From an uncultured Burkholderiales bacterium (lineage in GTDB: Bacteria; Pseudomonadota; Gammaproteobacteria; Burkholderiales; Burkholderiaceae_C), in NCBI GenBank assembly GCA_937864005.1, contig CALMIL010000025.1, forward strand, positions 2,162-66,161: a DNA stretch of 64,000 bases, given 5' to 3'. A program made the position numbers and the translations under genes. Below are positions 13,278-64,000 of this stretch, one piece after another. The number at the start of each line of letters is the position of its first letter. Within the stretch, counting starts at the first letter, position 1. The notes beneath the pieces were generated by a model, which saw only the letters and a list, made by a program, of their open reading frames with translations, was not told where the DNA came from and did not search any database.

Positions 13278-13279
13278 CC

Positions 13280-44329: not shown

Positions 44330-45430
44330 TCAGCGAGCGAGCAAGCGGTTCAAATGCCAGCGGGCCGGTAGTTCGATCCGGCGATAGGTGAAGTATGAAA
44401 GTGCGAAGGTCAGCGCTACCAACAAGAACACCTTGAGCGCATAGACCTTGATGGGACTGTAGGAGCCCGCCAAGCCGGAGAACACGTATCCACCATACAT
44501 CCAGTAGAGCCTGTAGAAAATCCAGTGAGTCATGTAGAGCGAGTACGAGAGCGTGCCCAACAACAGCAAAGGCGGTGACATCAGGACGCGCGCCACGGGT
44601 CCTCGGTCATCGGCCGTCGACAGAATCAATAGTGCCAAGGCGAAAAGTATTACCGCCTGACTCCAGCCGAGGTGCAGCGCTGCAATCGCGACGGCCATCG
44701 CGGCGACCTGCAGCAAGGTAGCAACCGATGCCACCCGCGCGCGTCGCTGGCGCCAAAGGCGATGCAGCAGCATGCCTGCGATGAAGCCCGCCATGCATCG
44801 GGCGAGAGGCTGCTGGTCGCCAATGTCGCTGAAGTTCGCAAACGTGTGCACGTAAATCGTCATGGCCGCGATGGGCAGTAGCGCACGCACTGCCCATCTG
44901 CCGTGGTCAGAGAGCAGCAGCAACAGCGGAAAGGCAAGGTATGCGAACGCTTCCGTGCTGATTGACCAGGACGGCACGTTCCATTCGAGGCGATCCATCG
45001 TCAACCAGGCATGGGTCAGCGTCAGATGCTGAAGAATCGATCCCCAACTCTTGCGATCGCTGGCAAAGGCGTCGGCGATCTCGGGGCGCAGCACATAGGC
45101 CGAAAGTTCCACCGCGATCATTGCCAGCAGGGTGGCAAAGTGCAGCGGGTAGATTCGCGCGAAGCGCGCGAGATAGAAGCGCCGCGTGGCATGCACCTTC
45201 ACCCCCTTGGCCGACATGGCTGCGCCATACACATGCGACAGGATGAAACCACTGAGTATGAAGAAAAAGTCCACCCAGATGCGCCCGTCGGAGAAGAACA
45301 CCGTGTGCGAATCGATCGCTTGGCCCACCGACGGCGTGACGTCCCGAAAGTGGTACAGCAGTACCAAGACTGCCGCGACACCGCGCAGGGCATGGTGCGA
45401 CCTGATCACGTCGGCACCGGGCGAATTCAT
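44330..45430 (-). CDS. Acyltransferase family 3 membrane protein (probable O-acetyltransferase)
   Basis: LRGVAAVLVLLYHF, IWVDFFFILSGFILSHVY and about 10 TM helices. Confidence 0.85.
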   Translation of the reverse strand: MNSPGADVIRSHHALRGVAAVLVLLYHFRDVTPSVGQAIDSHTVFFSDGRIWVDFFFILSGFILSHVYGAAMSAKGVKVHATRRFYLARFARIYPLHFATLLAMIAVELSAYVLRPEIADAFASDRKSWGSILQHLTLTHAWLTMDRLEWNVPSWSISTEAFAYLAFPLLLLLSDHGRWAVRALLPIAAMTIYVHTFANFSDIGDQQPLARCMAGFIAGMLLHRLWRQRRARVASVATLLQVAAMAVAIAALHLGWSQAVILFALALLILSTADDRGPVARVLMSPPLLLLGTLSYSLYMTHWIFYRLYWMYGGYVFSGLAGSYSPIKVYALKVFLLVALTFALSYFTYRRIELPARWHLNRLLAR

Positions 45431-50775: not shown

Positions 50776-51074
50776 AGGCTTGCGCGCAGGGGGCCGACTG
50801 TCTTGGCCGCCCTGGTTTCGCCGGTTCGCGCGATGGTTGTTGGCATCCCGGATTCTGCGATGAATTCATCGCATCGAGCCTGCTCCCGATCGGCCGCCGC
50901 GCACTTCCGTGACTTTCTGACTCACATTCCGACATAGGTCGCAGCACCTCGGCCGGCCCGAGAGCGGCCAAGCCCCGTGGCACGCGGTCCCCCGCAAACA
51001 TGGTCACCCGTAAACCCCTGTCAACGCTAGACTGTCAACCCCAAGCCAGCATCCCGCCCACACCCGTCGTGCCG

Positions 51075-52067
51075 ATGCGCCCAGTGTCCGATCGCCCCCA
51101 TCGCCTTGTGCAGCACGGCGCCTGGCTGCTGGCGCTGCTCTGCGGCGCGGCCTGCGCGCAAGTGCCGACGCTTTCGCTCGAATCGCTGCCCAGGCCGTCG
51201 ACCCCGCCGCCCGAGATCGGGCCCGTCGTGCCGGTGCAGGTTCAGCGCTGGCGCGGAGAAGCCCTGGCCTACGAGCATGGCGACGGTGTGCCACGCGACC
51301 CCGTCCTCGCGGCGCAGTTGTATTGCCGCGCTGCGCGCTACGGCGATGCCGAGGCGCAGTTCAACCTGGCATGGATGCTGACCAACGCGCGCGGCATCGA
51401 GCGCGACGATGCACAGGCGGCGCATTTGTTCGCTGCCGCCGCCGAGCAGGGCATGGTGCAGGCCAAGAACATGCTTTCCGCGCTCGGCACGCCGCGCGGC
51501 CCGGTGCCGGCGTGCCTGCGCCCGCCGGAGGCCGACGCCGCTGCACCCGCTGCGGCGGTTGCGCGGCAGAACGCGCCGGTGGCGGTACCGCCCGCCCCTG
51601 CCAACGCACCGGAGCCGATCGTCAGGTTCGTCAAGCTCGTCGCACCCGAGTACCGCCTCGCGCCGCACCTGGTTCTGGCGGTGATGGCAACCGAATCGAA
51701 CTTCGATCCATGGGCGGTTTCGCCGAAGAACGCGCAGGGCCTGATGCAACTGACGCCCGACACGGCAGCGCGCTTCAAGGTCCGCCGCATCACCGACCCG
51801 GTGCAGAACATTCGCGGCGGCATGGCTTACCTGCGCTGGTTGATGGCGTATTTCGAAGGCGACCTCACGCTCGTGCTGGCTGCGTACAACGCCGGCGAGA
51901 AGGCCGTCGAGCGCTATCACGGCGTGCCGCCCTACGCCGAGACGCGCGAGTACGTGCGGCGCATCCTCGGCGCCGTCGGCGGGCAGCGTTCGTACCCGTT
52001 CGACCCTGCGGTGACGCCGCCATCGGATCTGCTGGCACTGCTGCGCGAACCGCCGCGCAAGCGCTGA
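51075..52067 (+). CDS. Sel1-repeat / soluble lytic transglycosylase (SLT domain) fusion protein, secreted
   Basis: Signal peptide ...GAWLLALLCGAACAQ. Sel1 repeats (ALAYEHGDGVPRDPVLAAQLYCRAARYGDAEAQFNLAWML...). SLT catalytic motifs MATESNFDPWAVSPKNAQGLMQL and AAYNAGEKAV. I chose the ATG at 51075; the track ORF starts at 51000. Confidence 0.8.
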   Translation: MRPVSDRPHRLVQHGAWLLALLCGAACAQVPTLSLESLPRPSTPPPEIGPVVPVQVQRWRGEALAYEHGDGVPRDPVLAAQLYCRAARYGDAEAQFNLAWMLTNARGIERDDAQAAHLFAAAAEQGMVQAKNMLSALGTPRGPVPACLRPPEADAAAPAAAVARQNAPVAVPPAPANAPEPIVRFVKLVAPEYRLAPHLVLAVMATESNFDPWAVSPKNAQGLMQLTPDTAARFKVRRITDPVQNIRGGMAYLRWLMAYFEGDLTLVLAAYNAGEKAVERYHGVPPYAETREYVRRILGAVGGQRSYPFDPAVTPPSDLLALLREPPRKR

Positions 52068-52146
52068 AGCGCCGCAGGCATCACCCGGGCGCGCGGGTGT
52101 CGGCCGGGCTGCAGCGGCCGATCGGCGGGTGCGTCGCGGCGACGTA

Positions 52147-53216
52147 TCAGCGGGGCGAAAGCGCGGCGATGTCGATCCGCCGATTGCCGCCGCCGTCCCA
52201 GCCGGCGGCAAGTCAAGTTCCCCCGGGCCGACGAAGCGGTTGTCGGCGATGCGCACCGGGGTCTCTCCTGCCAGACGCTCGGCCCACACATGAACGAAGC
52301 GCGCCTGCGGGCCGGCGGCATTGACCAAGGTGTTGTCCGTCAGCACCAGGCTGCCGCGCATGCCGTCGCGCGCCTCGGCGCCCATGCTGACCAGGTCGGG
52401 GTTCTGCGTTTTCGCGCTCTGGGCGATCAGGTTGCCCACGACCACGTTGTCGCCACCGTTCGGAAACTCGATCTCGTACGAGGCTTCGCCCGCCGGCCTG
52501 TCGTCGAGGTGGTTGTAGAGCACACGACTGCGCAGCGCCCTCGACTTCAGCAGGTGGCCGCGCCAACCCCCGCTGAAGCGGCTGCCGCGGATGCTGAATT
52601 CGCCGATCGCGCCGACGTACAGCAGGTGATGCAGCGCTCCCTCGTGGCGCGGCGCGGCGCCGAACTCGCAGCCGGCCACGTCGAGCTCCATGTCGGCGTC
52701 GTTGGCGGTCAGGATGCCCATCTCGTTGTCGAAGAAGCGGCAGCGCCGCACGGCGAGCCGGCCCCGCTCGAAGCGGATGCCGGCCCCGTTGCCAGCGGGC
52801 ACGCGGGCACCGCGGAACTCGAGGTTCTCGACCACGACATCCCCGCGCACGACCAGAATGCCCTTGCCTTCGGCATCCCGCCCGTCAGCGTGGAACACGG
52901 CGCCAGCGCCGAGACCGCGGATCGTCAGCCGCGGCAACGCCACGACCGCCGCGTCGCCGTGGTACTCGCCAGGCTGGACCTCGACGACGTCGCCGCTGGC
53001 GGCTGCATGCATCGCGGCATGCAGCGTGCGGAAGCGCTCGTTGGGGCCGACACCGAGCGTCCGACGCATGCCGCTTTGTGCACGTACCAGCAGCGGCGCG
53101 GCCAAGGCCAGAGCCAACGCCCGCCGAGCGCGCCCAACCCGAGAGAGCCCATCGTTCACTCGGGGCGACGCAGCGAGCGCAAGAGGTTGTTGATCGGAAT
53201 GTGTGCCGCCCGCCAT
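52147..53216 (-). CDS. Secreted right-handed parallel beta-helix repeat protein; 3' end uncertain (possible frameshift)
   Basis: The N-terminal ~340 aa of the 729-aa track ORF (51027-53216) carry a signal-like region (RRALALALAAPLLVRAQS) and beta-helix repeats (VVENLEFRGARVPAGNGAGIRF, CRFFDNEMGILTAN...). Downstream of ~52190 that frame is the codon-aligned antisense of the SLT gene. A neighbouring frame ends at TGA 52149-52147. The coordinates cover the domain-supported part only. Confidence 0.5.
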
Positions 53217-53293
53217 TCGGACTCGTCAGGCTGTCTCCCGGGCCGGGTGCCAAGCCGATCGTCTCCGTGTCTCTGAAGTGGGCCTACCGCCCG

Positions 53294-56200
53294 TCAAGCT
53301 GGGTGCAGCGCGTATTCGTGCGCCACTCGCGGTTCACGGCGGCCAAACATGAAGCCGATCACTGCCAGGCTCAGGTAAAGCTGACTGAAGCGCGGTGAAT
53401 CGACGACGCTGTCGATCAGGCCCACGCCCTGAAACGCCAGCAACGCAATCGCGACGGCGAAGAAGTACGGGCGCCCGGCCGAGGCCGCACGCCACGCGCC
53501 GAGGACGCCGGCCAGCAACAGGCCCAACTGGGCAACCACACCGACCGCACCTTGCTCGAAGAACACCTGCAGCCACAGGTTTTTCATGTGCCAGGTCAGA
53601 TGACTGTCAGACGAATAGAGCCAGTGCGCCGCCCCCTCGTCGAAGCTGCCGTTGCGCAGGCGCTGGTGGCCTTGCGCATCAGTGACAGCCAGATCATCGA
53701 CATCCACCACGCCGCCCCCACTCGAGTACAGCGTGAAGCGGATCGGCCTCGGCGGCCAGCCGGCCTGGGGGTTTACTGGCAAAGTGATCGGTGCCGACAC
53801 AGTGTGCCATTGCCCATCCGGCAGCGCCCGCAACGTGGCGCCACCGCATTGGCGACTCTGAATCAGGTCCTTTTCACAGAGAAGTGCCTGGATCCCGCCT
53901 CCCTCAGTGGCGCGCAGACGTGCGCTGATCGTCAGCCGCTCGCCATACGCAGCGTCGACACGCTGATCCAGGTAGGACAGCGAACCGGGGTGCGAACGCA
54001 GCCAGGTGTTGTCAGCCTCGCGGTGCAGCGCGAAGATGCCGGGCCTGGCCTTCGGGTCACTTTGCAGGTAAGACGCGCGGCCGAAGCTGCCCAGCCCATT
54101 GCCGAAGAGTTGGGCTGCCGCACCGTGGCGCCCGAACGTGAGGCTCTCCTTCCAGTGACTGATTCGAATCCGGGCATCCGCAGCCAACTGTTGGAAGCGC
54201 CCGGAGGCATACGGCGCGTCCAGGATCCTGCCAGCGATGATCGCGACTGCGATCGCCAGCAACCCGGCCTTCGCCCACAGCGGGAAACGCCCGACGGGAC
54301 CTGGGCGCATCACGCGGCGGGTTGCCAGCAACACGATGCTGGCGCCGACCGCAAAGAGGAAGACCACCTGACCCCCCCGCGAATAGGTCACCATCGTTGC
54401 ATAGGCTGCAGCCAGAACCAGCAATGCGCTGGCCCAGCGTGCCATCCGCCACTCTTCATGCATCGCAGCCACGACTGCAAAGGGCACTGCTGCCGCAAGG
54501 AAGCACTCGATATAGGCGCCGCCGAGCGCGATGGCACTGAACGGCCCGGGCGCGCGGTAGTCAGACGAGAAATCGAATGGTCCAACGAAGGAAAGGCGCT
54601 CGCTGACAGTGAGGAACACCACACCGGCCAGCGCGACGACCATGCCGCGCCCGAACATCAGCGCGGCCGGCGCGGCGTCGAGGTTCAGGCGTTGCACAAA
54701 GATGGCGAGCACGAGAGCCCACAGCAGGCCCTTGGCCTGCATGGCGCCGAACGCCGAACCCAGGGGCGTGAGCAGCGCGCCGGGGTCGAAGGCATCGAAT
54801 CCGCCGAAGCCGATCACCGCCCCGGGGATCAGGCCGAGCAGCAACCACGCACCAAGGGGCCAGGAGCGCGGCCCATTGCCGGGGCGGCGAACGTTCGGAT
54901 GAACGAACGCCAGAACAGCCGTCGCCAGCATCAGCAGGTCCAGCGTGTCAAACCAACGTATCCCCGTGTACGGCGCATCGTCTGCCAACGCAATGGCCAC
55001 GGGTATGAGGAGCAAAGCCAGATGAGGCGCACTCCAGATGCAATAGGTGTATGTCGCCACCGCCAGCGCCATGGCCAGCGCATTGCCGGGCGCTGCATGG
55101 GCGGTGCCGACGATTGCAGCGGTGCCAAGCACCGCCAACAGGCCGACGCCGCCCTCGCCACGCGCCGGCCCGATAGCGGCGGCCGTTGAGGAGGAAACTG
55201 GCCGGGCGAGAGTCGCCGCGGGAACACCGGCTGCGGCCGCAGCCCACCGCAGCTTGTACGTCACCAGATGGGCGACCCATGCTGCGGAGGCAGCGATGAG
55301 CACGTTGGTCGGATCGGGATGACGGCCGACGAGGACGAGTTGCGAGGCCTCGACGAACAAGGCCGTCAGGCCCGCCAGCGCCGCGACGAAACGGGGCCGT
55401 GGAGTTGCCCAGAGCAACCCGCCGGCGACGCCGACCCACATGTAGCTGGCGACGCATCGAAGCAGGCTCGTCAGCGCACTCGATTCGCTGGTGAAGTAGT
55501 GGTAGTAGAAAGGCAGGTAGTTGAGCTTCGCCGCGCGCTCGAACCATCCCGCCACGGCGACCTGGCTATGGCCCCAGCCTGCCAGAAACGCAAGCACGAG
55601 CAGCCAAGGTCCGGCGGCGGCGGCCACAATCAGGCGCAAGCGGTCGGCCGTCATCTTCGCTTGGAGCATGCCGGCGCGCGGGGCCAGCCAGGCACCCACG
55701 GCAAACCCGACGCCCCGGGAGAGCACGGACGCGCCCTGCGACGTCGCAGCGAGCAGGAACAACTGGGCGATCTCGATGACAGCGCCGAAACCGATGCCGA
55801 GCATGGCGGCTTTGGGCCAACGCATGCGTCGCGAGCCCCTGCCGAGCGCAAATCCGAATGGGACCGTGAGCAGCACCTCCACCAGGACTTGCAACACGCT
55901 CCGAGGGAGGTGCACCGCATTGATCGGGGCAACCCACCATCCCGCACCCCCGGTGGCGAGCTTTTGCTCGAACACCGCGGCGGCGGTGGTGAAATCGAAC
56001 GGGAAGAAGCTCAGGCCGAGGTAGGCAAGCAGGTACAGCCACAGCAGCGCCGCCCCCGGCTGGGCATCGTTGGATTTGGCTCGCGCGAGAAGGCGCATGA
56101 ACGCGCGGCCGAACAGGAGGGCCAAGGCACAGCCGATCGCGGTTCCGCCGATCTCGGCGACAACGTCGTTGAGAGAAACGGTACGCGGCGGGAAGTAGAT

Positions 56201-56545
56201 CTGTGTGAACTCGATCGCCGCGGCGAGGACAGATCCCGCGACGAGAACGGCCAAGGCCGCCCCGGCGGCATGCAAGCTGCGGGTCGGCTTGCCGCGACCC
56301 GGATCGATCATGATTGCGCAGGTTCCGATGAACCCCACGGGGATGTAGAGCAAGGCGTTGGCCAGCCAGTCCAGGCGCCCGCCCAGATCGATGTTCAGCC
56401 ACGGCAGATGCGCGAAAAGAGCCGCCGCCCGATCCCACGGCACCCAGCGCAGGTCAAACGGCAACAGGCTGCCATAAATCACGAACGCGCACCACGCGAT
56501 CCAGGCTCGAGCGAGGATTCGGCGCATCTCGCGTGAGTTGGGCAT
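53294..56545 (-). CDS. Giant polytopic membrane protein: VanZ-like N-terminal repeats, an O-antigen-ligase/polymerase-like domain and an extracytoplasmic beta-rich insert
   Basis: The ATG at 56545 is in frame with the 1538-aa track ORF and gives MPNSREMRRILARAWIAWCAFVIYGSLLPFD... VanZ-like motif AAIEFTQIYFPPRTVSLNDVVAEIGG. Wzy_C-like motif MVTYSRGGQVVF. The soluble insert contains NGSFDEGAAHWL. The protein has more than 20 TM helices. The upstream 455 codons of the track ORF overlap the epimerase gene in another frame. Confidence 0.7.
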   Translation of the reverse strand: MPNSREMRRILARAWIAWCAFVIYGSLLPFDLRWVPWDRAAALFAHLPWLNIDLGGRLDWLANALLYIPVGFIGTCAIMIDPGRGKPTRSLHAAGAALAVLVAGSVLAAAIEFTQIYFPPRTVSLNDVVAEIGGTAIGCALALLFGRAFMRLLARAKSNDAQPGAALLWLYLLAYLGLSFFPFDFTTAAAVFEQKLATGGAGWWVAPINAVHLPRSVLQVLVEVLLTVPFGFALGRGSRRMRWPKAAMLGIGFGAVIEIAQLFLLAATSQGASVLSRGVGFAVGAWLAPRAGMLQAKMTADRLRLIVAAAAGPWLLVLAFLAGWGHSQVAVAGWFERAAKLNYLPFYYHYFTSESSALTSLLRCVASYMWVGVAGGLLWATPRPRFVAALAGLTALFVEASQLVLVGRHPDPTNVLIAASAAWVAHLVTYKLRWAAAAAGVPAATLARPVSSSTAAAIGPARGEGGVGLLAVLGTAAIVGTAHAAPGNALAMALAVATYTYCIWSAPHLALLLIPVAIALADDAPYTGIRWFDTLDLLMLATAVLAFVHPNVRRPGNGPRSWPLGAWLLLGLIPGAVIGFGGFDAFDPGALLTPLGSAFGAMQAKGLLWALVLAIFVQRLNLDAAPAALMFGRGMVVALAGVVFLTVSERLSFVGPFDFSSDYRAPGPFSAIALGGAYIECFLAAAVPFAVVAAMHEEWRMARWASALLVLAAAYATMVTYSRGGQVVFLFAVGASIVLLATRRVMRPGPVGRFPLWAKAGLLAIAVAIIAGRILDAPYASGRFQQLAADARIRISHWKESLTFGRHGAAAQLFGNGLGSFGRASYLQSDPKARPGIFALHREADNTWLRSHPGSLSYLDQRVDAAYGERLTISARLRATEGGGIQALLCEKDLIQSRQCGGATLRALPDGQWHTVSAPITLPVNPQAGWPPRPIRFTLYSSGGGVVDVDDLAVTDAQGHQRLRNGSFDEGAAHWLYSSDSHLTWHMKNLWLQVFFEQGAVGVVAQLGLLLAGVLGAWRAASAGRPYFFAVAIALLAFQGVGLIDSVVDSPRFSQLYLSLAVIGFMFGRREPRVAHEYALHPA

Positions 56546-56760
56546 GCAGATCAATCGGCTCGTCGTCGCCCAGTGGCCTTGGATTGCCGCAGGATTGTGC
56601 CGTTCAATTGCTCTTGGCGCGCTGTATATCGCCGCTCGGGTTCCCGACCGCTTGTGGATCGCCTCGCCGCGACGCAGGCGCCATCCGCAACGTCTCCCCA
56701 TGCGGCCAGTCTCGCTTGTGCATGCGCAAGCCCGATCGTGGGCGCGGCCCCGGTAGAAAC

Positions 56761-57747
56761 TCAGGCCGCCTGCGCCCGCCTCCGGCCCTCGAACCACTGC
56801 ACGAACCTCGCGAGCCCCTCGCGCAGCGGCGTCGCCGGCTCGAATCCCACCCGCGCGCGCAGCTTGTCGACATTCGCACAAGTGGCCCGCACGTCGCCCG
56901 GCTGCATCGGCAGGAAATCGAGCTTCGGCGTCACGCCGAGCAGGGCCGAAAGCGTCTGGATGAATTCGAGCACCGTCACCGGCGCGTGGTTGCCGATGTT
57001 GAAGATCTCGTACGCCGGGTCGCCGCCGCGGCGCTGAGAGAGTGCCAGGCGGACCACGCCTTCGGTGATGTCGCCGATGTACGTGAAGTCGCGTTGCAAC
57101 GTGCCGTCCGCGAACACCGGCAGCGCTTCGCCCGCCACCAGGCGCTGGGCGAAGCTGAAGTACGCCATGTCCGGCCTGCCCCAGGGCCCGTACACGGTGA
57201 AGAAGCGCAGCCCCGTGCAGCGCATGCCGTGGACGTGGCTGTAGGCGTGCGCCATTGCCTCGTTGGCCTTCTTGGTCGCGGCGTACAGCGACACCGGGGC
57301 GTCGGTGCGCTGCGACTCCTCGAACGGCGTCTGCACGGAGTCGCCGTAGACGCTGCTCGAGCTGGCGTACACCAGGTGCTCGACATTGCCGAGCCGGGCC
57401 GCCTCGAGCACGTTGGCGAAGCCGACGAGGTTCGCGCTGACGTACGCCTGCGGGTGGCTGATCGAGTAGCGCACGCCAGCCTGCGCCGCCAGATGCACCA
57501 CACGCGCCGGGCGATGGCGTTCGAACAGCGCGCCAAGTGCCGCCGGGTCCGCGACGTCGACCGCCTCGCATTGCACGCCAAGCGGGGTGAGCAGCGCTGC
57601 GACCCGTGCGTGCTTGAGCGCCGGGTCGTAGTAGTCGTTGAAGTTGTCGCAGCCGACGACGCCGTGACCGAGTGCGCGCAGGCGCGCCGCGACATAGGCG
57701 CCGATGAACCCGGCGGCGCCGGTGACGAGGATGGGTGAGGTCGACAT
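56761..57747 (-). CDS. NAD-dependent sugar-nucleotide epimerase (UDP-glucuronate 4-epimerase-like, SDR family)
   Basis: MSTSPILVTGAAGFIGAYVAARL (Rossmann GxxGxxG) and the catalytic SLYAATKKANE (YxxxK). The ATG at 57747 lies within the 374-aa track ORF. Confidence 0.9.
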   Translation of the reverse strand: MSTSPILVTGAAGFIGAYVAARLRALGHGVVGCDNFNDYYDPALKHARVAALLTPLGVQCEAVDVADPAALGALFERHRPARVVHLAAQAGVRYSISHPQAYVSANLVGFANVLEAARLGNVEHLVYASSSSVYGDSVQTPFEESQRTDAPVSLYAATKKANEAMAHAYSHVHGMRCTGLRFFTVYGPWGRPDMAYFSFAQRLVAGEALPVFADGTLQRDFTYIGDITEGVVRLALSQRRGGDPAYEIFNIGNHAPVTVLEFIQTLSALLGVTPKLDFLPMQPGDVRATCANVDKLRARVGFEPATPLREGLARFVQWFEGRRRAQAA

Positions 57748-57899
57748 GGAGGGGTTCGTGATGAATTGCCGGCGGCGCCCGGTGGCCGGATTGTCGATGA
57801 TCGACGCGCCCTTCCCGGCCCGGCCGGCTGCGTGACAATCGGCCGGGCGCGGCCATGCCGGCACTGCCCGGCAAAGGGAATACAAGGAATGCCTGCCCG

Positions 57900-59243
57900 A
57901 TGAAGATCACTGTCAGCGGCTCCGGCTACGTCGGTCTGGTGACGGGCGCCTGCCTGTCCGAAATGGGCAACCACGTCGTCTGCCTCGACGTGGACGAAGA
58001 CAAGATCGCCGTCCTCCAGGGCGGGGCCCTGCCGATCCACGAGCCCGGACTGCTGGAGATGGTGACGCGCAACGCCCTGGCCGGGCGCCTTCAGTTCACC
58101 ACTGACGTCGACCACGCGGTGGCGCACGGCACGGTCCAGTTCATCGCCGTCGGCACCCCACCCGGCGAGGACGGCTCGGCCGATCTGCAGCACGTGCTGC
58201 GGGCGGCACGCGCGATCGGCGAACGCATGACCGACTACAAAGTGATCGTCGACAAGAGCACGGTGCCGGTCGGCACCGGCGACGCCGTCGAGTCCGCGGT
58301 CAGCGCGGCGCTCGCGGCCCGCGGCGTGCCGCTCGCGTTCTCGGTCGTCTCGAACCCAGAGTTCCTGAAGGAAGGCGCGGCAGTCGAAGACTTCATGCGG
58401 CCCGACCGCGTGATCATCGGCGCCGACGACGAGCGGGCCGTCCTCCTCATGCGCTCGGTGTACAGCCCCTTCGTTCGCAACCGCGACCGCCTGCTGGTGA
58501 TGGACCGGCGCAGCGCCGAGCTCACCAAATACGCGGCGAACGCGATGCTCGCCACCCGCATCAGCTTCATGAACGAGCTCGCGAACCTGGCGGAACGCCT
58601 GGGTGCGGACATCGAGCTCGTGCGCCTGGGCATCGGCAGCGATCCGCGCATCGGCACCCAGTTTCTGTACGCCGGTTGCGGCTACGGCGGTTCGTGCTTT
58701 CCGAAGGACGTGAAGGCGCTCGTGCACACTGGCGCTGCTGCCGGCATGGACCTGCAGGTGCTCAGAGCCGTCGAGGCCGTGAACGAGGCGCAGAAGCAGA
58801 CCCTGGTCGACAAGGTGATCGCGCGCTTCGGCAGCGAGCTCGCCGGCCACCGGTTTGCGTTGTGGGGCCTTGCCTTCAAGCCGGGCACCGACGACATGCG
58901 CGAGGCGCCGAGCCTCGTCGTCGTGCAGGGCCTCACCGAGCGCGGCGCGGTCGTCGTCGCCTACGACCCGGTGGCGACGAGCGAGGGGCAGCGCCGGATG
59001 AAGGGCTGGCCGGGCATCGAGTTCGCGCCCAGCGCCGCCGAAGCCGCGGAGGGCGCCGACGCGCTCGTCATCGTCACCGAGTGGAAGGAGTTTCGAAGCC
59101 CGGACTTCGAGCACCTCAGGCGCACGCTGCGCCATCCGGTGGTCTTCGATGGCCGCAATCTGTTCGAGCCCGACCGGATGCGCTCCGAGGGGCTCGAGTA
59201 CCACTGCGTCGGGCGTGCTTCGCCGCTGCCCGCCGAGCAATAG
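57900..59243 (+). CDS. ugd: UDP-glucose 6-dehydrogenase
   Basis: [36 protein letters not shown], and catalytic Cys context [13 protein letters not shown]. 447 aa, with an AAGGAA RBS upstream of the ATG at 57900. Confidence 0.95.
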
Positions 59244-59293
59244 CCGACACGCGCACGACATTCGCGGCGCGGCTCGTCGCCGGGCTCGCATTC

Positions 59294-61351
59294 ATGGCGG
59301 GCGCAGGCCTCGCCTGGCATCACCCGGTGGCGCCCGGGCCCGCGCTCATCGCGTTCGTGCTTGCCTGCGCGGCCGTCGCGTGGCGCCCGGGCATCTGGCT
59401 GTTCGTCGTGCCGGCAACGCTGCCGGTGCTGAACTTCGCGCCGTGGACCGGCTGGGTGGTGTTCGAGGAATTCGACCTGCTGCTGCTCGCCGTGGCTGCC
59501 GGTGCCTATGCCCGGCTGGCGCTGGCGAAGACGGCAGCTTGCGGCGACCAGGCTCGGCCATCGCGCGACATGACGGTCTTCATCGCGCTGGCCGCCGTGT
59601 TCGGCGCGCTCAGCGTGGCGGCCTGGGTCAGCGGCATCTCGACGGCAGGCGCGGTCGCCTTCGGATGGTTCCAGGGCTATACCGACCCGTTGAACAGTTG
59701 GCGCATCTTCAAGAGCGTGCTGTTCGCAGCGCTGCTGTGGTTGCCGCTGCGTCAGGAGGTCCGGGCGGGAGCTGACCTGGCGGTGCACCGCCTGACTTCG
59801 GGCATGCTGGTGGGGCTGGCGATCGTCGCGCTGGCCGTCGTCTGGGAGCGCACGGCCTACACGGGTCTGTGGGACTTTTCTGCCCCCTACCGCACGACGG
59901 CGCTGTTCTGGGAGATGCATGTCGGGGGCGCGGCGATCGACGCCTACCTGGCGCTCGCCACGCCCTTCGTCGCCTGGGCGCTGTGGACGTCGCGCACGCC
60001 GCTGCGCTGGGCTGTTGCGGCCGTGCTGGCGCTGCTGACGGGCTATGCGTGCCTCACGACTTTCTCGCGCGGCGTCTACCTCGGCGTCGCCGTCTCGCTG
60101 GCATTGCTCGGCCTGCTCCTCGCCCGGCAGCACGCCGATGGCGACGTGCGTATCTCGGCGCTGCGCGCAGTGAGAATCACCGCGCTGCTGCTCGTCACGG
60201 CCACCTGCCTGGTGCTGGCGTTCGATGCCGGGGGCTTCGCCGGCGCCAGCGCGGTGCTGGCGGCCATCGCGCTGGCGCTTGTCGCGCTGCGGCGGCGGCT
60301 GTCGCTTCGCCACTGGCGCAAGGCGGCGAGCCTGGCACTGGCGCTGGCGCTGGCGCTCGAGGTGGCGGCAGTGCTGGAGCTGGGAACCTACATGCGCGAT
60401 CGCTTCGCGGCGATCGACCTCGACCGAGGGCACCGCATCGAGCACTGGCAAAACGGCCTCGGCCTGATGCACGGCGCCGCCGACTGGCTGCAGGGCATCG
60501 GTCTGGGCCGCCTGCCTGCCGCTTATGCGCGGGGCGTTCCCGGCGAGGGGTTTCCAGGCGAAGTGCAGTTCGTTCGAGCCGCCGCCGGCGACCCATCAGG
60601 CTCGGTCATCGTGCGCGGGCCGAAAGCGCCTTCGGACACGCGCGGCCTGCTGGCGCTGACCCAGCGCGTCGCGCTGCGCCCGGCGGCGCGCTACCAGGCA
60701 GCATTCGATGTGCGCGCCCGTACGCAGGCCGACGTCCTGGTCCAGCTCTGCGAGATGCACCTTCTCTATCCGCGCAACTGCCAGGGCGCGTTCGTCAGGC
60801 TGGCGCCGGGCGGCGCGCAATGGCGCCACATCGCCGTGCAATTGCGCGGGCCCGCGCTCGACCCCGGCCGCGCATGGGCGCCGCGCCTCGGCGTCTTTTC
60901 GGTCGCCGTCGTCAACCCCGGCGGCGCGGCCGAATTCGGCACGCTGAGCCTCATCGGGCCGGATCGCCGCGAGGTGCTCGTCAACCGCGACTTCTCCGAA
61001 GGCATGGCACGCTGGCTCCCGGCGGCGCAGGGTGACTACGTGGCGTGGCACATCGACAACCTCTACCTCGAGCTGCTGATCGAGCGCGGTTTTCCGGCGT
61101 GCCTGGCGTTCGTGCTGTGCATGGCCCTCGTGCTGCGGCGGCTCGTCGGCGCCGCCGGACGCGAAGTGGCCATCGCGCCGTTCCTCGCCGCGTCGCTGTG
61201 CGGCGGGCTCATCGTCGGCCTCGTCAGCAGCGTGATGGACGTGCCCAGGGTCGCGTTCCTGCTGTTCCTGCTTACGATCTTCGCGGTCGAGATCACCGGC
61301 AGCGGCCGTCCCGCCGGGTGTCGAGCGGCCGGCTCAGAGCGTGCGCCGTGA
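59294..61351 (+). CDS. Large O-antigen-ligase/polymerase-like polytopic membrane protein with an extracytoplasmic beta-rich insert (paralogue of 53294-56545)
   Basis: The first in-frame start after the ugd stop is the ATG at 59294; I checked every codon between. Wzy_C-like motif LTTFSRGVYLGV. The insert contains NRDFSEGMARWL. It aligns by eye with the other giant protein (RIEHWQNGLGL vs RISHWKESLTF; WHIDNLYLELLIERG vs WHMKNLWLQVFFEQG). Confidence 0.7.
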   Translation: MAGAGLAWHHPVAPGPALIAFVLACAAVAWRPGIWLFVVPATLPVLNFAPWTGWVVFEEFDLLLLAVAAGAYARLALAKTAACGDQARPSRDMTVFIALAAVFGALSVAAWVSGISTAGAVAFGWFQGYTDPLNSWRIFKSVLFAALLWLPLRQEVRAGADLAVHRLTSGMLVGLAIVALAVVWERTAYTGLWDFSAPYRTTALFWEMHVGGAAIDAYLALATPFVAWALWTSRTPLRWAVAAVLALLTGYACLTTFSRGVYLGVAVSLALLGLLLARQHADGDVRISALRAVRITALLLVTATCLVLAFDAGGFAGASAVLAAIALALVALRRRLSLRHWRKAASLALALALALEVAAVLELGTYMRDRFAAIDLDRGHRIEHWQNGLGLMHGAADWLQGIGLGRLPAAYARGVPGEGFPGEVQFVRAAAGDPSGSVIVRGPKAPSDTRGLLALTQRVALRPAARYQAAFDVRARTQADVLVQLCEMHLLYPRNCQGAFVRLAPGGAQWRHIAVQLRGPALDPGRAWAPRLGVFSVAVVNPGGAAEFGTLSLIGPDRREVLVNRDFSEGMARWLPAAQGDYVAWHIDNLYLELLIERGFPACLAFVLCMALVLRRLVGAAGREVAIAPFLAASLCGGLIVGLVSSVMDVPRVAFLLFLLTIFAVEITGSGRPAGCRAAGSERAP

Positions 61352-62248
61352 CTTGGATGTGCGGCGCATTCCCGGGCGGACCGGCACCGCCTCATTGGGC
61401 GAGCGCACGCGGCGCGGCGAGCCTTCGGTGGCAGTGGGCGTGACGTGACGGCGGCCGCGGGCGGGGTCGAGGGATTTGCCCCTTCGCATTCCCGCGCGCC
61501 GACGGCTCCGGCGCCGCTGCGCGTACGCGCGGTAGCGCACGACCCCTGCCGCCGCGCTGCCGAACACCGCCAGCAGTACCACCAACCAGGTGAACGGATG
61601 ACCCGCGATCGTCTTGACGAGTTCGATCGCCTCCTGGACCAGATTGAGCTTGCCGACCGGTCGGCCCGCCGCTGTGAACTGCGGCGATGTCGTCCCGACC
61701 TCAGGTTCCACGATCAACGGCGACACGGGCGCGGGCTGGACCCTTGCCGGGTTCGGCGCCGAGGCGGCGGCTGATTCTGCCGCGAGCCCATCCTGCTGTG
61801 CCGGCAACACGGCATCTCTTGCCTCATGCGCCCATTGGAGCGCGGCCTTGGCGGCTTCCTGCAGGTCGGTGTCGATCCCGGCGTCGGGCTCGCCGCCGGC
61901 AGATGCCGCCTGCAGTGCGGGCCTGGCTCGCGCGGCCGCCGGCTTCGCGGCGGGGCGCGCCTCGCTCGGGCGTTGCGGGTGGGTGACTTGCGCGCCTGAC
62001 GCAGAGGCCGGCTGCTGCTGTCCGGCGGGCGCCCCGTCGGCCCGCGAAGCATCGGAGGCAGGCGCCTCGGCAGGCAGCGGCGCGCCAAGGCCCGGACCGT
62101 CGTCAGCAGCCGGATCGATCCGCAGCTTCAGCGGCTTCGCCGACAAGCCCGCATCGTCCTGCACGACGGGGCCGGCGGCCGCCTGCAGCGCAACAAAGCA
62201 CGCTTGCAGGAGCAGCGCCGATACGAGGGTACGTGATCGGAACTGCAT
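61334..62248 (-). CDS. Hypothetical secreted Ala/Pro-rich low-complexity protein with a C-terminal TM helix and a long Arg-rich tail
   Basis: The ATG at 62248 lies 2 nt after the upstream stop. Signal peptide MQFRSRTLVSALLLQACFVALQAAAG. A long A/P/Q/S-rich region is followed by the TM FTWLVVLLAVFGSAAAGVV and then RYRAYAQRRRSRRRAGMRRGK... The upstream 106 codons of the track ORF overlap the OM protein gene. Confidence 0.5.
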   Translation of the reverse strand: MQFRSRTLVSALLLQACFVALQAAAGPVVQDDAGLSAKPLKLRIDPAADDGPGLGAPLPAEAPASDASRADGAPAGQQQPASASGAQVTHPQRPSEARPAAKPAAARARPALQAASAGGEPDAGIDTDLQEAAKAALQWAHEARDAVLPAQQDGLAAESAAASAPNPARVQPAPVSPLIVEPEVGTTSPQFTAAGRPVGKLNLVQEAIELVKTIAGHPFTWLVVLLAVFGSAAAGVVRYRAYAQRRRSRRRAGMRRGKSLDPARGRRHVTPTATEGSPRRVRSPNEAVPVRPGMRRTSKSRRTL

Positions 62249-62250
62249 TT

Positions 62251-63519
62251 TCAAAGATAGACACGAAGCACGACCTGCAGTGTTTGCTGTTGCGGCACGC
62301 TGTAGTACACCGACCCGGGCCGCCCGCTGAAGACCTGCCACTGCAGCGCCAGTTCGGCGCGCTCCCACGCATAGCGGCCCTCGAGCCAACCGGCGCGGCT
62401 GCTCGTCTCCATGTCGTGGCGCAGGAAGCCCGACACGTCGAGCCGGCGCACGAACACGTCCTTCCAGATGGCATAGAAGAACCATTGGCGCCGCGTCGGC
62501 AAGTCCTGCAACGCCTGCGCGGTGGCAAGCACCTGCTGTTGGGCGTTGCCGGGCAGCGCGCGCCACTGCGCATCGTCAGGCGCGGCGCTGCTGTACTCGG
62601 CTTCGGCGGTGAGGCTGAGGTTGAACGCGGTGGTGTAGGTCAACCCGACCGAGGCGCGCTGCTGGTCGGTCCGCGCCTCGGGCAAGGCGAGCGCCTGCGC
62701 GACGAGCGAGATGCCCTTGCCTGCCGAGACTTCGCCATACACCACCGCCGCGTCGCCGATCAGCGCCGAGAGGTTCAGGCCCGCCTGCGCCGGTATGTCG
62801 TCGCCGCCATAGGCCAGCAGTTGCGGGCTGAACTTGTCGCTCACCTTGACGCTGCCGGCCAGCAGCCAGCGGTTGCTCGGGTTGGTGGCGCCGGCATTCA
62901 GCGCGAAAGTGGCGCTGTCGGCCGAGCGCGCGAGCCGGGGCGAGAAAGCCGCCGTCACGGCCCCTTTGCTCCACAACTGCTGCGCCTGCACGACGACCGT
63001 GCCCTGGCGGTTCTCGCGCAGCACGGCGGGATCCGGGTTGACGATCGCGCGCAACGCGTTGGCCTTGAACCAGTCGGTCGGATTGAACCCCATCGCGGCG
63101 CCGTTGCGGATGTTGACGCGGCCGAGGTCGAAGATCTGGTCTTCCGTGCGGGCCCAGCTCAGATACGCCTCGCGCAGCGTGTTGACGTTCTCGCCGGGCG
63201 GAACGCCTTCGCTGTGGACGAGGTCGAGACGGTCGGAGAACACAACGCGCAGACCCTTCGTCAGCGTCGTGTCGAACCTGAGGTCCGCCGACCCGCGCGC
63301 GATGCCGAAATGCGAGCCGGTGTCGCGCAGTTGGCCCTCGCCGCCGGCGCCTTCGACGAAGATGCGCCACTGCTGCGCCTGCTGCGCCGGCGCAGCGGGC
63401 GCCTTGTCGGCGAGCGTCAGCGCGTCGAGGTCGTCGGGCGGCGCGTCGGGTGCATCGGCGGCGCGCGCCGGCAACATGGCGGCGAGCGCCAGGCACAGTG
63501 TGATGGCGGCGGGGCGCAT
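62251..63519 (-). CDS. Putative outer-membrane beta-barrel protein
   Basis: The ATG at 63519 gives the signal peptide MRPAAITLCLALAAMLPARAADA. It is followed by about 400 aa of alternating amphipathic strands (e.g. ASVGLTYTTAFNLSLTAEAEYS, AELALQWQVFSG) ending ...QVVLRVYL. No specific family recognised. Confidence 0.55.
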   Translation of the reverse strand: MRPAAITLCLALAAMLPARAADAPDAPPDDLDALTLADKAPAAPAQQAQQWRIFVEGAGGEGQLRDTGSHFGIARGSADLRFDTTLTKGLRVVFSDRLDLVHSEGVPPGENVNTLREAYLSWARTEDQIFDLGRVNIRNGAAMGFNPTDWFKANALRAIVNPDPAVLRENRQGTVVVQAQQLWSKGAVTAAFSPRLARSADSATFALNAGATNPSNRWLLAGSVKVSDKFSPQLLAYGGDDIPAQAGLNLSALIGDAAVVYGEVSAGKGISLVAQALALPEARTDQQRASVGLTYTTAFNLSLTAEAEYSSAAPDDAQWRALPGNAQQQVLATAQALQDLPTRRQWFFYAIWKDVFVRRLDVSGFLRHDMETSSRAGWLEGRYAWERAELALQWQVFSGRPGSVYYSVPQQQTLQVVLRVYL

Positions 63520-63521
63520 CG

Positions 63522-64000
63522 TCACTCCGGCTTGAAGCGCGGCAGGTAGTCGCGCTGGAACCAGGCGTCGGGCACCTCGCGCCACGCGTAGTCGCTGTAG
63601 CGCAGCACGGTGACCCAGGCGGGATCGAGCCCGTCGATGATGACGACCTCGGTCGGCCGCTCGCGGCCCAGTTGCGGCTGGTACTTGCGGTAGTACGCGG
63701 TCTTGAGCAGGTGCCCGCTCTCGGCAAAGAAGCGCGCCTTGATCGGCCGCGACGAAGCGGCATCGACCCACATCTCGACCCGGTGGTAGGTGACGTCGGG
63801 CGACACCGCGGCGAGGCCGAGCTTGTAGCTGCGGCGCGTTACGCGCTCGCCGTCGGCGACGTCTTCCTCGCCGAGCAACTCGGCCTTGTAATCCTTGGCC
63901 AGGTTGACGGTCACGACGTCGCCGTTCGACGCCTGCCCGAGCAGCCGCTGCTGCGGCGACAGGCGGATGCTCGCCTGGCTGGACGGGTCGTAGAACCACA
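63522..64000 (-). CDS. LolA-like outer-membrane lipoprotein-sorting-family protein, 3' part only (5' end beyond the window)
   Basis: The frame is open to the window edge: ...WFYDPSSQASIRLSPQQRLLGQASNGDVVTVNLAKDYKAELLGEE...VEMWVDAASSRPIKARFFAESGHLLKTAYYRKY... This pattern matches LolA-like 'lipoprotein-sorting' proteins as I recall them. The track M at 63914 is an internal GTG. Confidence 0.5.
   Translation of the reverse strand, partial: WFYDPSSQASIRLSPQQRLLGQASNGDVVTVNLAKDYKAELLGEEDVADGERVTRRSYKLGLAAVSPDVTYHRVEMWVDAASSRPIKARFFAESGHLLKTAYYRKYQPQLGRERPTEVVIIDGLDPAWVTVLRYSDYAWREVPDAWFQRDYLPRFKPE

Follow-up and report, generated by a model that had tools for sequence, protein, structure and literature searches.

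Two old paralogues with a WaaL-like core and a candidate carbohydrate-binding insert at an XrtA/PEP-CTERM exopolysaccharide locus

Gene content of the locus

The window, by which we mean the whole analysed stretch of 64,000 nucleotides, encodes a complete XrtA/PEP-CTERM exopolysaccharide (EPS) system. Genes for two membrane proteins, here called A and B, bracket an SDR epimerase gene and ugd, and the gene map confirmed this arrangement from the original prediction. Its coordinates and reading frames for A and B were also correct, since translation gave 1083 and 685 amino acids respectively, and all motif strings quoted for the two proteins were found in the translations. No alternative in-frame start was found upstream of protein B. 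The genes are as follows.

17839-19422, plus strand: exosortase A (XrtA; TIGR03109, 338.8 bits), marker of the system accompanied by A and B
25131-26441, plus strand: third Wzy_C-type protein, 436 aa, without insert (TIGR03097, 507.4 bits against a cut-off of 188.1)
47526-48989, minus strand: Wzx/MOP flippase, the sole one in the window
49069-50775, minus strand: AsnB-like amidotransferase, recurrent near A homologues (16 of 80 loci)
52101-53216, minus strand: right-handed beta-helix protein encoded immediately downstream of A, likewise recurrent near A homologues (13 of 80 loci)
53294-56545, minus strand: protein A, with three VanZ modules, WaaL-like core, CBM-like insert and three C-terminal TM helices
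56761-57747, minus strand: SDR epimerase, upstream of A on the same strand (NCBIfam matches begin at residue 45 of a longer ORF)
57900-59243, plus strand: UDP-glucose 6-dehydrogenase, Ugd (TIGR03026, 431.6 bits; TuaD, 489 bits)
59294-61351, plus strand: protein B, with WaaL-like core, CBM-like insert and three C-terminal TM helices, without VanZ

The SDR epimerase matched PDB entry 5u4q (E 5.5e-99) as well as the UDP-GlcA 4-epimerases MoeE5 and 6zl6 (E ~1e-40), and by these similarities it is probably a UDP-glucuronate 4-epimerase. Its gene and ugd are divergent, with 152 nt between them, and ugd ends 50 nt before the start of protein B; the same gene order was repeated on a near-identical contig from another sample. 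The pair had been described as diverging from a shared promoter region. The divergence held, but promoter-like and terminator-like signals sought in the epimerase-ugd region did not rise above chance, and thus gene orientation is all that suggests a shared promoter.

The counts of three ligase/polymerase-family proteins (A, B and the protein at 25131-26441) and one Wzx were likewise confirmed in the window. From them it had been suggested that the locus makes more than one polymer or uses more than one acceptor, a suggestion on which the computed results are neutral. They also bear on a role of A and/or B as Wzy-type polymerases of repeat units, which we consider possible but do not favor. A would then serve the adjacent Wzx-dependent cluster on the minus strand (57747-36682), B would serve a uronic-acid polymer for which ugd and the epimerase provide the supply, and the CBM would hold the growing chain and confer processivity. 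Consistent with such a role, the minus-strand array running from 57747 down to 36682 encodes the Wzx, at least seven glycosyltransferases, a sulfotransferase, a deacetylase and an acyltransferase, and no polytopic Wzy candidate was found in it besides A. Furthermore, both A and B lie among sugar-nucleotide and sugar-modification genes, the usual company of polymerases, and 11 of 80 loci with an A homologue have a Wzx no more than 10 kb away from it. However, one Wzx and one priming transferase (EpsB_2) stand against three Wzy_C-type proteins in the window, and the more obvious polymerase candidate is the TIGR03097 protein, whose family is universal in XrtA systems and is the canonical XrtA-associated "putative O-glycosylation ligase".

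The WaaL-like core and the inserted jelly-roll

By sequence comparison, A and B are true but old paralogues, as had been predicted. BLASTP aligned A485-724 with B13-260 (31% identity, E 1e-12) and A779-1062 with B366-662 (31% identity, E 4e-24), and a Smith-Waterman alignment followed a single path across A484-1062 and B12-662. This alignment scored 95.1 bits, whereas none of 245 block-shuffled copies of B exceeded 27.3 bits (mean 19.9, sd 1.7). AF2 models were obtained for A (pLDDT 90.4, pTM 0.77) and B (pLDDT 84.3, pTM 0.88), and the parts of the two proteins were placed as follows.

56066-56545, minus strand: VanZ module M1 of A (aa 1-160), keeping N63, E112xxQ115, R121, S124, N126, D127 and E131, invariant in 111 homologues
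55646-56065, minus strand: degenerate VanZ-like module M2 of A (aa 161-300), with E258xxQ261 and R277, H4 Asp absent
55220-55645, minus strand: degenerate VanZ-like module M3 of A (aa 301-442), with E399 and a D411-P-T-N414 motif
55157-55219, minus strand: disordered linker of A (aa 443-463; pLDDT <50 at residues 443-460) from VanZ array to ligase-like half
54143-55156, minus strand: WaaL-like TM core of A (aa 464-801) with TYSRGG (R723), from Foldseek, invariant columns and hhalign
53609-54037, minus strand: CBM22/CBM4_9-like beta jelly-roll insert of A (aa 837-979) with conserved pair C890/C900, from AF2 strands, PDB profile and Foldseek
53297-53578, minus strand: His motif of A, W985-H986-x2-N-L-x4-E-x-G, then three C-terminal TM helices (aa 990-1083)
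60560-61030, plus strand: CBM-like beta jelly-roll insert of B (aa 423-579) with conserved pair C486/C496, from AF2, Foldseek and invariant columns

In these models a WaaL-like polytopic fold common to A and B is shown. Foldseek matched both to WaaL (7tpg_B) with probability 1.0 and a TM-score (target) of 0.56-0.59 (0.59 for A), the alignment running across the insert; the E-values were weak (0.01-0.05), and because WaaL is the sole Wzy_C-type structure available, the match cannot tell ligase from polymerase. Sequence conservation points to the same core. Among 111 A homologues, R723, R783, D790, R794, W798 and G815/817/819 were invariant and H986 was kept in more than 90%, while 64 B homologues showed invariant R259, R370, D377, R381, H384, W385, G401/403/405 and H586, which match the A residues (homologues at 30-76% identity). 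Both proteins are thereby shown, at the level of sequence, to keep a predicted periplasmic Arg in the SRG motif, an Arg-x3-(H)W helix, GxGxG and W-H-x2-N-L-x4-E-x-G; in A, the periplasmic helix carries R783, D790, R794, H797 and W798. Moreover, an hhalign comparison (E 2.3e-4) showed the SRG and R..W..GxGxG motifs to be collinear between A and the TIGR03097 protein. The Wzy_C-type core that had been proposed is therefore borne out by fold and motifs but not by Pfam, in which Wzy_C stayed below the gathering score for A (25.5 vs 31.7 bits) and did not match B. On A, the match covers A709-849, equivalent to profile positions 2-134 of 149, and so ends where the insert starts.

PF04932 takes in Wzy polymerases as well as ligases, and membership thus leaves room for a polymerase role; the conserved Arg/Arg/His pattern, which we take to be a WaaL/PglL signature, argues against it.

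The original prediction of an extracytoplasmic insert resembling a carbohydrate-binding beta-sandwich agreed with the models and profiles. AF2 placed strands at A837-979 and B423-579, within hydrophilic loops of 212 and 224 aa respectively. An A-family profile searched against PDB sequences matched the CBM22 structure 4mgq_A (E 3.4e-5), which Foldseek also matched to protein A (E 0.0095); for the insert of B, Foldseek returned CBM61, CBM22 and CBM4 (E 0.006-0.05), and the best Foldseek matches for the inserts were CBM22, 61, 4, 16 and 6. Pfam CBM_4_9 or CBM_4_9_1 matched weakly in 12 of 28 inserts. In both models, a jelly-roll of about 150 aa and of CBM22/CBM4_9 type is shown between GxGxG and the His motif, and thus would lie within the catalytic periplasmic loop, where a disulfide between the two conserved Cys residues would suit a periplasmic location. 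With its identity drawn from fold and weak sequence signals, the insert is a candidate CBM; jelly-rolls can bind proteins too.

The Wzy_C superfamily also includes PglL and PilO, and A and B go together with XrtA systems. As had been suggested, A and/or B might be PglL/PilO-like protein O-oligosaccharyltransferases that glycosylate PEP-CTERM proteins and so couple EPS to exosortase cargo; binding of EPS by PEP-CTERM proteins via glycosylation has been proposed in floc studies (PMC9850573). We consider this unlikely: the window has a separate gene for TIGR03097, the family that already bears the name of that function, a pattern scan of the window gave no PEP-CTERM ORF, Pfam detected neither Wzy_C_2 nor other PglL-associated domains in A or B, and a CBM is better suited to a glycan than to a protein partner.

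The VanZ array and the distribution of the families

VanZ modules had been noted at the N-terminus of A, and they are present, but their number is three rather than two. Pfam found three VanZ stretches (75.6 bits), and hhalign related M1 to M2 (probability 93.6%, E 2e-7), M1 to M3 (probability 84%, E 7e-6) and M2 to M3 (probability 69%). Judged by motif definitions taken from PMC12419801, M1 keeps the VanZ-1 active-site residues and is probably an active VanZ-1 unit, with SxNDxxxE as its H4 motif compared to the canonical DxDDxxxN; VanZ chemistry is itself a prediction. When helices of the AF2 models were oriented by the positive-inside rule, the polar residues of M1 fell on the same side as the ligase loop, predicted to be the periplasm.

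The degeneracy of two of the three modules, the weak Pfam Wzy_C signal and the signaling roles for lipocone fusions discussed in PMC12419801 would suit non-catalytic scaffolds, sensors or chain-length modulators, in which the jelly-roll senses periplasmic EPS and the VanZ array regulates lipid-carrier availability. We find this very improbable, because the (near-)invariance, across the 64-111 homologues, of the putative catalytic Arg/Arg/His residues and of Asn/Glu/Gln/Asp in M1 argues for retained chemistry.

The architecture is not rare, and neither family is: a collection with one genome per species contained at least 543 loci for A relatives, and when proteins were clustered at 50% identity, about 1,900 clusters had the insert. 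Both A and B have relatives that recur in or near XrtA/PEP-CTERM systems. In 23 of 80 loci, XrtA markers lay no more than 10 kb from the A homologue, and B homologues lay between the XrtA-associated decarboxylase and EpsB_2/PrsK/PrsR/PrsT or adjoined epimerase and ugd; some A homologues sat in unrelated neighborhoods, e.g. in Nitrotoga. Only 2 of 80 loci had a separate B-type gene no more than 10 kb from the A homologue, and the bracketing of uronate genes by both paralogues is thus a lineage-specific arrangement. At a further locus, a B-type gene has as its divergent neighbor a gene for a protein with three VanZ modules (30% identity to A16-363, E 7e-32). Between genera, orthologues of A and of B keep 50-60% identity, far above typical Wzy conservation, which again speaks against polymerases.

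Proposed role and relation to known systems

Most likely, A and B are undecaprenyl-diphosphate-glycan transferases that act late in assembly of a uronic-acid-rich EPS. Each would take a uronic-acid-containing glycan on undecaprenyl diphosphate, after flipping by Wzx, and transfer it at the periplasmic face of the inner membrane, while the inserted CBM may grip the polysaccharide chain, as donor or glycan acceptor, directly above the active site. The periplasm-facing VanZ-1 module of A could act on the lipid-diphosphate head group handled or released by the transferase, in Und-PP recycling or chain release (cf. the VanZ proposal of Burroughs et al., 2025). Such VanZ-ligase coupling is suggested by the fusion in A, by the adjacent genes at the further locus and by the catalogued VanZ-WaaL fusions. 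That A and B are anciently diverged WaaL/Wzy_C-superfamily glycan transferases acting in these steps, of a family that accompanies the XrtA/PEP-CTERM EPS system of Beta- and Gammaproteobacteria, seems to us reasonably probable. Whether the TIGR03097 protein is the polymerase, with A and B as end-stage ligase-type transferases to a non-carrier acceptor, is close to evenly balanced, and we propose it tentatively.

WaaL O-antigen ligase (Cupriavidus metallidurans, PDB 7TPG; CAZy GT121) resembles A and B in its polytopic fold, in having conserved Arg and His in a helical loop on the periplasmic side and, presumably, in its Und-PP-glycan donor; sequence similarity between the TM part of A/B and PDB chains was not detectable. 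In contrast to WaaL, A and B have the CBM-like domain before the His motif and an EPS/XrtA rather than LPS core context; B has an additional TM hairpin (residues ~285-335) and A a 440-aa VanZ array. PglL/PilO and Wzy polymerases also use Und-PP-glycan donors, and features specific to either family were not detected in A and B. The TIGR03097 protein belongs to the same superfamily and XrtA system but, unlike A and B, has only ~20 residues from GGGFEFW to the His motif, without CBM or VanZ, and the TIGR03097 model scored neither A nor B.

A precedent for a ligase domain fused to an enzyme of the same pathway is the bimodular WadA (GT121 + GT25; Brucella, Mesorhizobium), whose partner is a soluble glycosyltransferase instead of VanZ and which has no inserted CBM (PMC10920833). 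The architecture of A had been thought undescribed, but VanZ-WaaL fusions were already known computationally. Burroughs, Nicastro and Aravind (eLife 2025; PMC12419801) include in their domain network WaaL-ligase with N-terminal VanZ-i (118) and VanZ-1 (62), in the same order as in A (VanZ-1, VanZ-i, WaaL-ligase) and with the same predicted theme of lipid-carrier head-group chemistry in exopolysaccharide pathways; their account consists of counts and a general prediction, and in the parts searched no mention was found of a CBM insert, an XrtA link or unfused B-type paralogues. As far as the literature found goes, the CBM insert is the undescribed part, and our search returned neither a description of it nor experimental work on the A/B family. 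Its closest counterparts are the CBM22/CBM_4_9 modules, e.g. of PbXyn10C (PDB 4MGQ), which share its beta jelly-roll fold and NGxF..G..W motif; however, the A/B module falls under the Pfam threshold, has its NGxF..W strand at the C-terminal end of the insert, and is embedded in the loop of a membrane enzyme, whereas theirs is appended to a glycoside hydrolase.

Relationship and gene setting of proteins A and B

Protein A and protein B, the two large O-antigen-ligase-like proteins of the window, are paralogues. BLASTP aligned A779-1062 with B366-662 (31% identity, E 4e-24) and A485-724 with B13-260 (31% identity, E 1e-12), and one local alignment covers A484-A1062 and B12-B662. The real score of A against B was 95.1 bits, compared with 27.3 bits for the best of 245 copies of B that were block-shuffled to keep local composition. 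Thus, the paralogy put forward in the original prediction is real and lies well above shuffled controls. Judging from their sequences, the two proteins are not recent duplicates, since each has its own orthologues in other genera at 50-84% identity. Furthermore, around residues 285-335 B forms an additional helical hairpin for which A has no counterpart.

The window has a GC content of 60-72%, which gives rise to many long shadow ORFs, and genes were chosen by codon-position GC. All of the motif strings originally quoted for A and B were found in their translations.

Genes of the A-B segment
53294-56545, minus strand: protein A, 1083 aa (from translation)
between A and ugd, likely start Met at 57747, minus strand: SDR epimerase (from family matches)
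57900-59243, plus strand: ugd, UDP-glucose 6-dehydrogenase gene, between the epimerase gene and B
59294-61351, plus strand: protein B, 685 aa (from translation)

The start assigned to the epimerase is the probable one because family matches cover the longer ORF only from residue 45 onward. The epimerase and ugd genes are divergent and 152 nt apart; on the minus strand the epimerase gene is followed by A after 215 nt, and on the plus strand ugd is followed by B after 50 nt. The same order of A, epimerase, ugd and B is present on a 99% identical contig from another sample. The best solved relatives of the epimerase include the UDP-glucuronate 4-epimerases MoeE5 and 6zl6, and on the basis of this relatedness the label 'UDP-uronate supply' is reasonable for the epimerase and ugd, with a UDP-uronate as the presumed substrate. 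That A and B bracket these genes holds for the window, but the arrangement is a trait of this lineage: among 80 loci, only two (L030 and L071) had an A-type and a B-type gene no more than 10 kb apart.

Many homologues of B are about 25 residues longer at the N-terminus; an earlier start for B was rejected, as the stretch from the ugd stop to 59294 has no in-frame ATG, GTG or TTG, and the start Met of B is at the same position in its two closest homologues. A promoter and terminator scan of 53000-61600 gave no signal above shuffled expectation, and an Rfam scan of the whole window gave no match.

Beyond A, a Sel1-repeat and lytic-transglycosylase gene (51000-52067, plus strand) lies within a 729-aa shadow ORF (51027-53216, minus strand), of which only the 5' third (52101-53216, a beta-helix protein) appears real. 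The genes 3' of B (61334-63998, minus strand) are conserved in several Burkholderiales (L086, L087 and L089) and encode a 304-aa Ala/Pro-rich single-TM protein, whose gene overlaps the 3' end of B by 18 nt with its own 3' end, a secreted protein of ~425 aa without a family, a LolA-like/TP_0789-like protein and an FtsX/ABC transporter. This conserved set may constitute an export or lipoprotein-sorting module.

Ligase-like core, jelly-roll insert and VanZ array

Confident AlphaFold2 models were obtained for B (pLDDT 84.3, pTM 0.88) and A (pLDDT 90.4, pTM 0.77). Foldseek matched both to the WaaL O-antigen ligase 7tpg_B with a probability of 1.00 and TM-scores (target) of 0.56 for B and 0.59 for A, at E-values of only 0.01-0.05, and in both proteins the alignment runs over both flanks of the insert. 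In these models, the membrane cores of A and B have a predicted WaaL-type polytopic fold with a periplasmic helical domain. Pfam Wzy_C (PF04932) matched A709-849 with 25.5 bits (E 1.3e-5), below its gathering cut-off of 31.7, and gave no match on B; in both families, roughly half of the homologues have a precomputed PF04932 match, with 35.0 bits in the insert-carrying homologue P0245. At E ≤ 0.1, Pfam returned only VanZ and Wzy_C for A, and for B only DUF7185 at a sub-threshold 15.1 bits (cut-off 27). An NCBIfam scan of A and B yielded nothing useful, TIGR03097 not being matched at E ≤ 0.1; the true TIGR03097 member of the window is the third Wzy_C-type protein (25131-26441, plus strand, 436 aa). 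The A-family profile was nevertheless collinear with this TIGR03097 protein in hhalign (E 2.3e-4), pairing SRG with SRG and R..HW...GxGLG with R..MWW...GGGF, and was misaligned past the insertion point. When the B alignment was compared with the TIGR03097 protein as a single sequence, only the His-motif helix aligned, without significance, and the B-family profile had no match among PDB sequences even at E ≤ 10.

The conserved periplasmic Arg and a His motif of the H-N-x-x-L-x4-E-x-G type are present in both proteins. R723 (in TYSRGG), R783, D790, R794, W798 and G815/817/819 are invariant among A homologues, with W985-H986 kept in more than 90%; among B homologues, R259, R370, D377, R381, H384, W385, G401/403/405 and H586 are invariant. 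By motif likeness, we take this Arg/Arg/His arrangement to be the classical ligase (WaaL) pattern. With these positions kept in this way, it is very improbable that A and B are non-catalytic.

The distance from GGGFEFW to the His motif is ~20 residues in the TIGR03097 protein, whereas it is ~170 in A and B. Motif collinearity, Pfam match boundaries and the Foldseek span together located the insertion point, and the insert, residues 837-979 of A and 423-579 of B, is a beta jelly-roll. When the A-family profile was compared with all PDB sequences, the sole match was the CBM22 module of Paenibacillus Xyn10C (4mgq, E 3.4e-5), which was also the top Foldseek match for A. Carbohydrate-binding modules (CBMs) of families 61, 22, 4, 11, 16 and 6 lead the Foldseek lists of A and B, with probabilities of ~1.0 and TM-scores (target) of ~0.5. 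Pfam CBM_4_9 or CBM_4_9_1 matched weakly in 12 of 28 inserts (PF02018 in eight, best E 0.0025; PF22637 in four, best E 8.8e-5), and neither matched the window's own insert. The insert would accordingly be classed, from fold and profile likeness, as a putative polysaccharide-binding CBM.

A Cys pair is invariant in the insert (C890/C900 in A, C486/C496 in B), and this conservation fits a putative periplasmic disulfide. At the C-terminal end of the insert, directly before the His motif, stands an NGxFxxGxxxW motif, which pairs with PDB chain residues 127-142 in the 4mgq alignment. This motif normally forms the first strand, that is the opening, of CBM_4_9/CBM22 modules, and its C-terminal position may reflect a circular permutation or a borrowed or swapped strand.

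Positions of the NGxFxxGxxxW motif
A 965-975: window 53621-53653
B 564-574: window 60983-61015

Only A carries VanZ modules: Pfam VanZ (PF04892) matched it with 75.6 bits (cut-off 30.1) over three stretches, and did not match B. Profile-profile comparison of A residues 1-160, 160-300 and 300-442 gave probabilities of 93.6%, 84% and 69%. The modules predicted at the N-terminus of A are therefore present, but there are three of them (M1, M2 and M3) rather than the two originally proposed. A disordered linker (residues 443-460) parts this array from the ligase half. The VanZ-1 active-site pattern, as given in PMC12419801, consists of an Asn in H2, ExxQ in H3 and DxDDxxxN in H4. In M1, N63, E112xxQ115 and D127 are all invariant in 111 sequences, and H4 reads S124-x-N-D-x3-E131 in place of DxDDxxxN. 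M2 and M3 are without the H4 Asp pattern; the hallmark Asn of H2, ExxQ of H3 and Asp of H4 are kept in M1 only, apart from its departure in the rest of H4; the arrangement of M1 with M2/M3 fits the description of VanZ-1 plus VanZ-i (PMC12419801). A topology call by the positive-inside rule on the predicted helices would place the polar cluster of M1 and the ligase loop both on the periplasmic side. As a structural reading, the original prediction was largely right, and what it observed is real and well above chance.

Exopolysaccharide genes in the window and around relatives

The window contains a complete exosortase A (XrtA)/PEP-CTERM exopolysaccharide (EPS) system and a second glycan block.

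Glycan genes of the window
1-31242, XrtA system, regulation and priming: PrsK (cut by the window start), EpsB_2 priming transferase, HprK-related kinase A, PrsR
1-31242, XrtA system, export and chain length: export protein, chain-length determinant, Tyr kinase, TIGR03016 outer-membrane protein, ATPase
1-31242, XrtA system, modification: deacetylase, FemAB
1-31242, XrtA system, glycosyltransferases: stp1, stp2, stp3
1-31242, XrtA system, rest: exosortase A, XrtA amidotransferase, TIGR03097 protein
1-31242, further genes: NTP_transf_5, trypsin-like protease
50775 down to 36682, minus strand, second block: AsnB-like amidotransferase, Wzx, 638-aa soluble protein, acyltransferase, WbsX
50775 down to 36682, minus strand, second block continued: four GT2 enzymes, GT14-like enzyme, deacetylase, sulfotransferase

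PrsT was not seen in the window. PEP-CTERM tails were absent from all window ORFs in a crude regex scan, with no cargo gene seen, and PglL/PilO-specific domains (e.g. Wzy_C_2) were absent from A and B in Pfam at E ≤ 0.1. Both results argue against O-glycosylation of PEP-CTERM cargo proteins by A and B, and we consider that reading unlikely.

The 64 kb hold three Wzy_C-type proteins, one flippase (Wzx) and one primer, and the second block encodes neither a further polytopic candidate for a polymerase nor another priming transferase. The lack of another Wzy candidate in the Wzx block, together with the linkage of A and B to sugar-nucleotide and sugar-modification genes, speaks for A and B as polymerases, which is possible, if doubtful. 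We tentatively favor ligase-type transferases, a preference short of confidence, because a single flippase and a single primer serve three Wzy_C proteins, because the TIGR03097 protein is universal and thus more likely to be the polymerase, because the cross-genus conservation of A and B is high and because their Arg/Arg/His pattern is ligase-like.

The 638-aa protein (45427-47343, minus strand) lies between Wzx and the acyltransferase; as the missing Wzy it was rejected, since it has no hydrophobic segments. It matches no Pfam or NCBIfam family, and a 47%-identical copy is found near an A homologue (locus L047). Three AsnB-like amidotransferases are encoded (20834-22774, 33586-35145 and 49069-50775), of which the first alone reaches the cut-off for the XrtA amidotransferase; the third, taken with Ugd and the epimerase, suggests amidated uronic acids in the polymer. 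The second block also includes a sulfotransferase at 37574-38524, and at the locus of the closest A homologue (L085, 76% identity) sulfate-activation genes (CysN/C-like, PAPS reductase-like and CysQ-like, 9819-14385) adjoin the A gene, which hints at a sulfated EPS.

Full-length A-type proteins (~1050-1130 aa) occur at no fewer than 543 loci in a one-genome-per-species collection, annotated as 'VanZ family protein' or hypothetical. Their hosts include the Betaproteobacteria Nitrosomonas europaea, Nitrosospira, Accumulibacter, Thiobacillus, Gallionella, Rhodocyclus, Rhodoferax, Rubrivivax and Rhizobacter, as well as gammaproteobacterial methanotrophs. A profile of the insert alone retrieved 1,881 clusters at 50% identity, 1,394 of them at E ≤ 1e-10. 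Among the 150 matches listed, protein lengths were ~1100 aa (A type), 640-710 aa (B type) and some others, and in the full-length ones the insert lies ~260 residues from the C-terminus of a ligase-like protein. Longer carriers are P0264 (1374 aa), P0290 (1290 aa) and P0291 (1539 aa), and a C-terminal M48 peptidase domain is present in one of the three; they may represent additional fusions or else run-ons from gene calling.

A and B are recurrently linked to XrtA-system marker genes. Of 80 loci, 23 had such markers within 10 kb of the A homologue: EpsB_2 and a protease directly follow the A homologue in methanotrophs, and other loci have HprK-related kinase A, TIGR03097 or XrtA itself. Recurrent neighbors were the AsnB-like gene (16/80; the type at 49069-50775, and the commonest), the beta-helix gene (13/80) and Wzx (11/80), and some A-homologue loci are unrelated to EPS. 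B homologues lie within the PrsK/EpsB_2 core in two of five loci inspected. At some loci, B homologues have an XrtA-associated AMP-ligase/decarboxylase set on one side and EpsB_2-PrsK-PrsR-PrsT on the other; other B homologues adjoin epimerase and ugd, along with the window's downstream genes (~425-aa protein, LolA-like protein, FtsX/ABC transporter).

At L087, the gene at 4335-6890, a divergent neighbor of a B-type ligase gene, encodes an 852-aa protein with a triple VanZ like that of A (30% identity, E 7e-32) and no ligase half. The triple VanZ and the CBM-bearing ligase thus occur both fused and adjacent, which supports their functional coupling. The C-terminal ~400 aa of the 852-aa protein are unrelated to A and unannotated. 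In Sulfuriferula plumbiphila (L083; genes at 13253-14335 and 17145-17768), a separate 360-aa VanZ protein follows the A homologue, and a PEP-CTERM-domain protein is encoded 4 kb away.

Proposed role and relation to known systems

As the glycan transferases proposed here, A and B would act in the periplasm by transferring a glycan linked to undecaprenyl diphosphate (Und-PP), the likely donor, to an acceptor; the inserted CBM would bind polysaccharide, and M1 of A would process a lipid-diphosphate head group. A more specific proposal, improbable in our estimate, is that A and B are coupling enzymes of the exosortase system. Their task would be to attach a uronic-acid glycan, delivered on Und-PP, to an EPS chain captured by the CBM or, alternatively, to join the polymer to an acceptor bound to the cell, for instance PEP-CTERM proteins processed by the exosortase. 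Cleavage or recycling of the lipid-diphosphate carrier would fall to the fused VanZ-1 of A, as part of one and the same catalytic cycle.

In wastewater bacteria, nitrifiers and methanotrophs, the formation of flocs and biofilms is driven by XrtA/PEP-CTERM systems. To our knowledge, it is not understood how these systems carry out their late steps (polymerization, carrier release, and linkage of the polymer to the cell or to PEP-CTERM proteins), and we know of no defined reaction for VanZ, a protein family known since the 1990s. The A/B family, with a CBM within a WaaL-type catalytic loop and fused to or paired with VanZ, is a candidate for these late steps, and A is a natural fusion for probing the lipid-carrier chemistry predicted for VanZ. 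If A and B were ordinary polymerases, the gain would be one of annotation, for ~1,900 clusters now called 'VanZ family protein' or 'hypothetical'. Their significance would be high only if they carry out EPS coupling in the exosortase system or give VanZ its first defined reaction. The coupling proposal, if true, would provide the first defined biochemical role for VanZ and account for the conversion of soluble into 'bound' EPS in flocs.

In a full-text literature search, we found no experiment on the A or B family, no description of the B-type family, no mention of either in work on Aquincola flocs, and no account of a Wzy_C or WaaL loop into which a CBM is inserted; a CBM in the catalytic loop thus appears to be undescribed so far. 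The architecture of A, which had not been recognized as described, is not wholly new, as the A/B family is widespread and has in part been catalogued. The Lipocone superfamily of Burroughs, Nicastro and Aravind (eLife 2025, PMC12419801) includes VanZ; they describe VanZ-1 as associated with or fused to WaaL-like ligases, and propose lipid-carrier head groups as the target that VanZ cleaves or transesterifies. Their network file (PMC12419801) includes WaaL ligases with N-terminal VanZ-i (118) and VanZ-1 (62), and the VanZ-ligase fusion is thus already catalogued, by computation only. In CAZy, O-antigen ligases form family GT121, with one bimodular case, WadA (PMC10920833).
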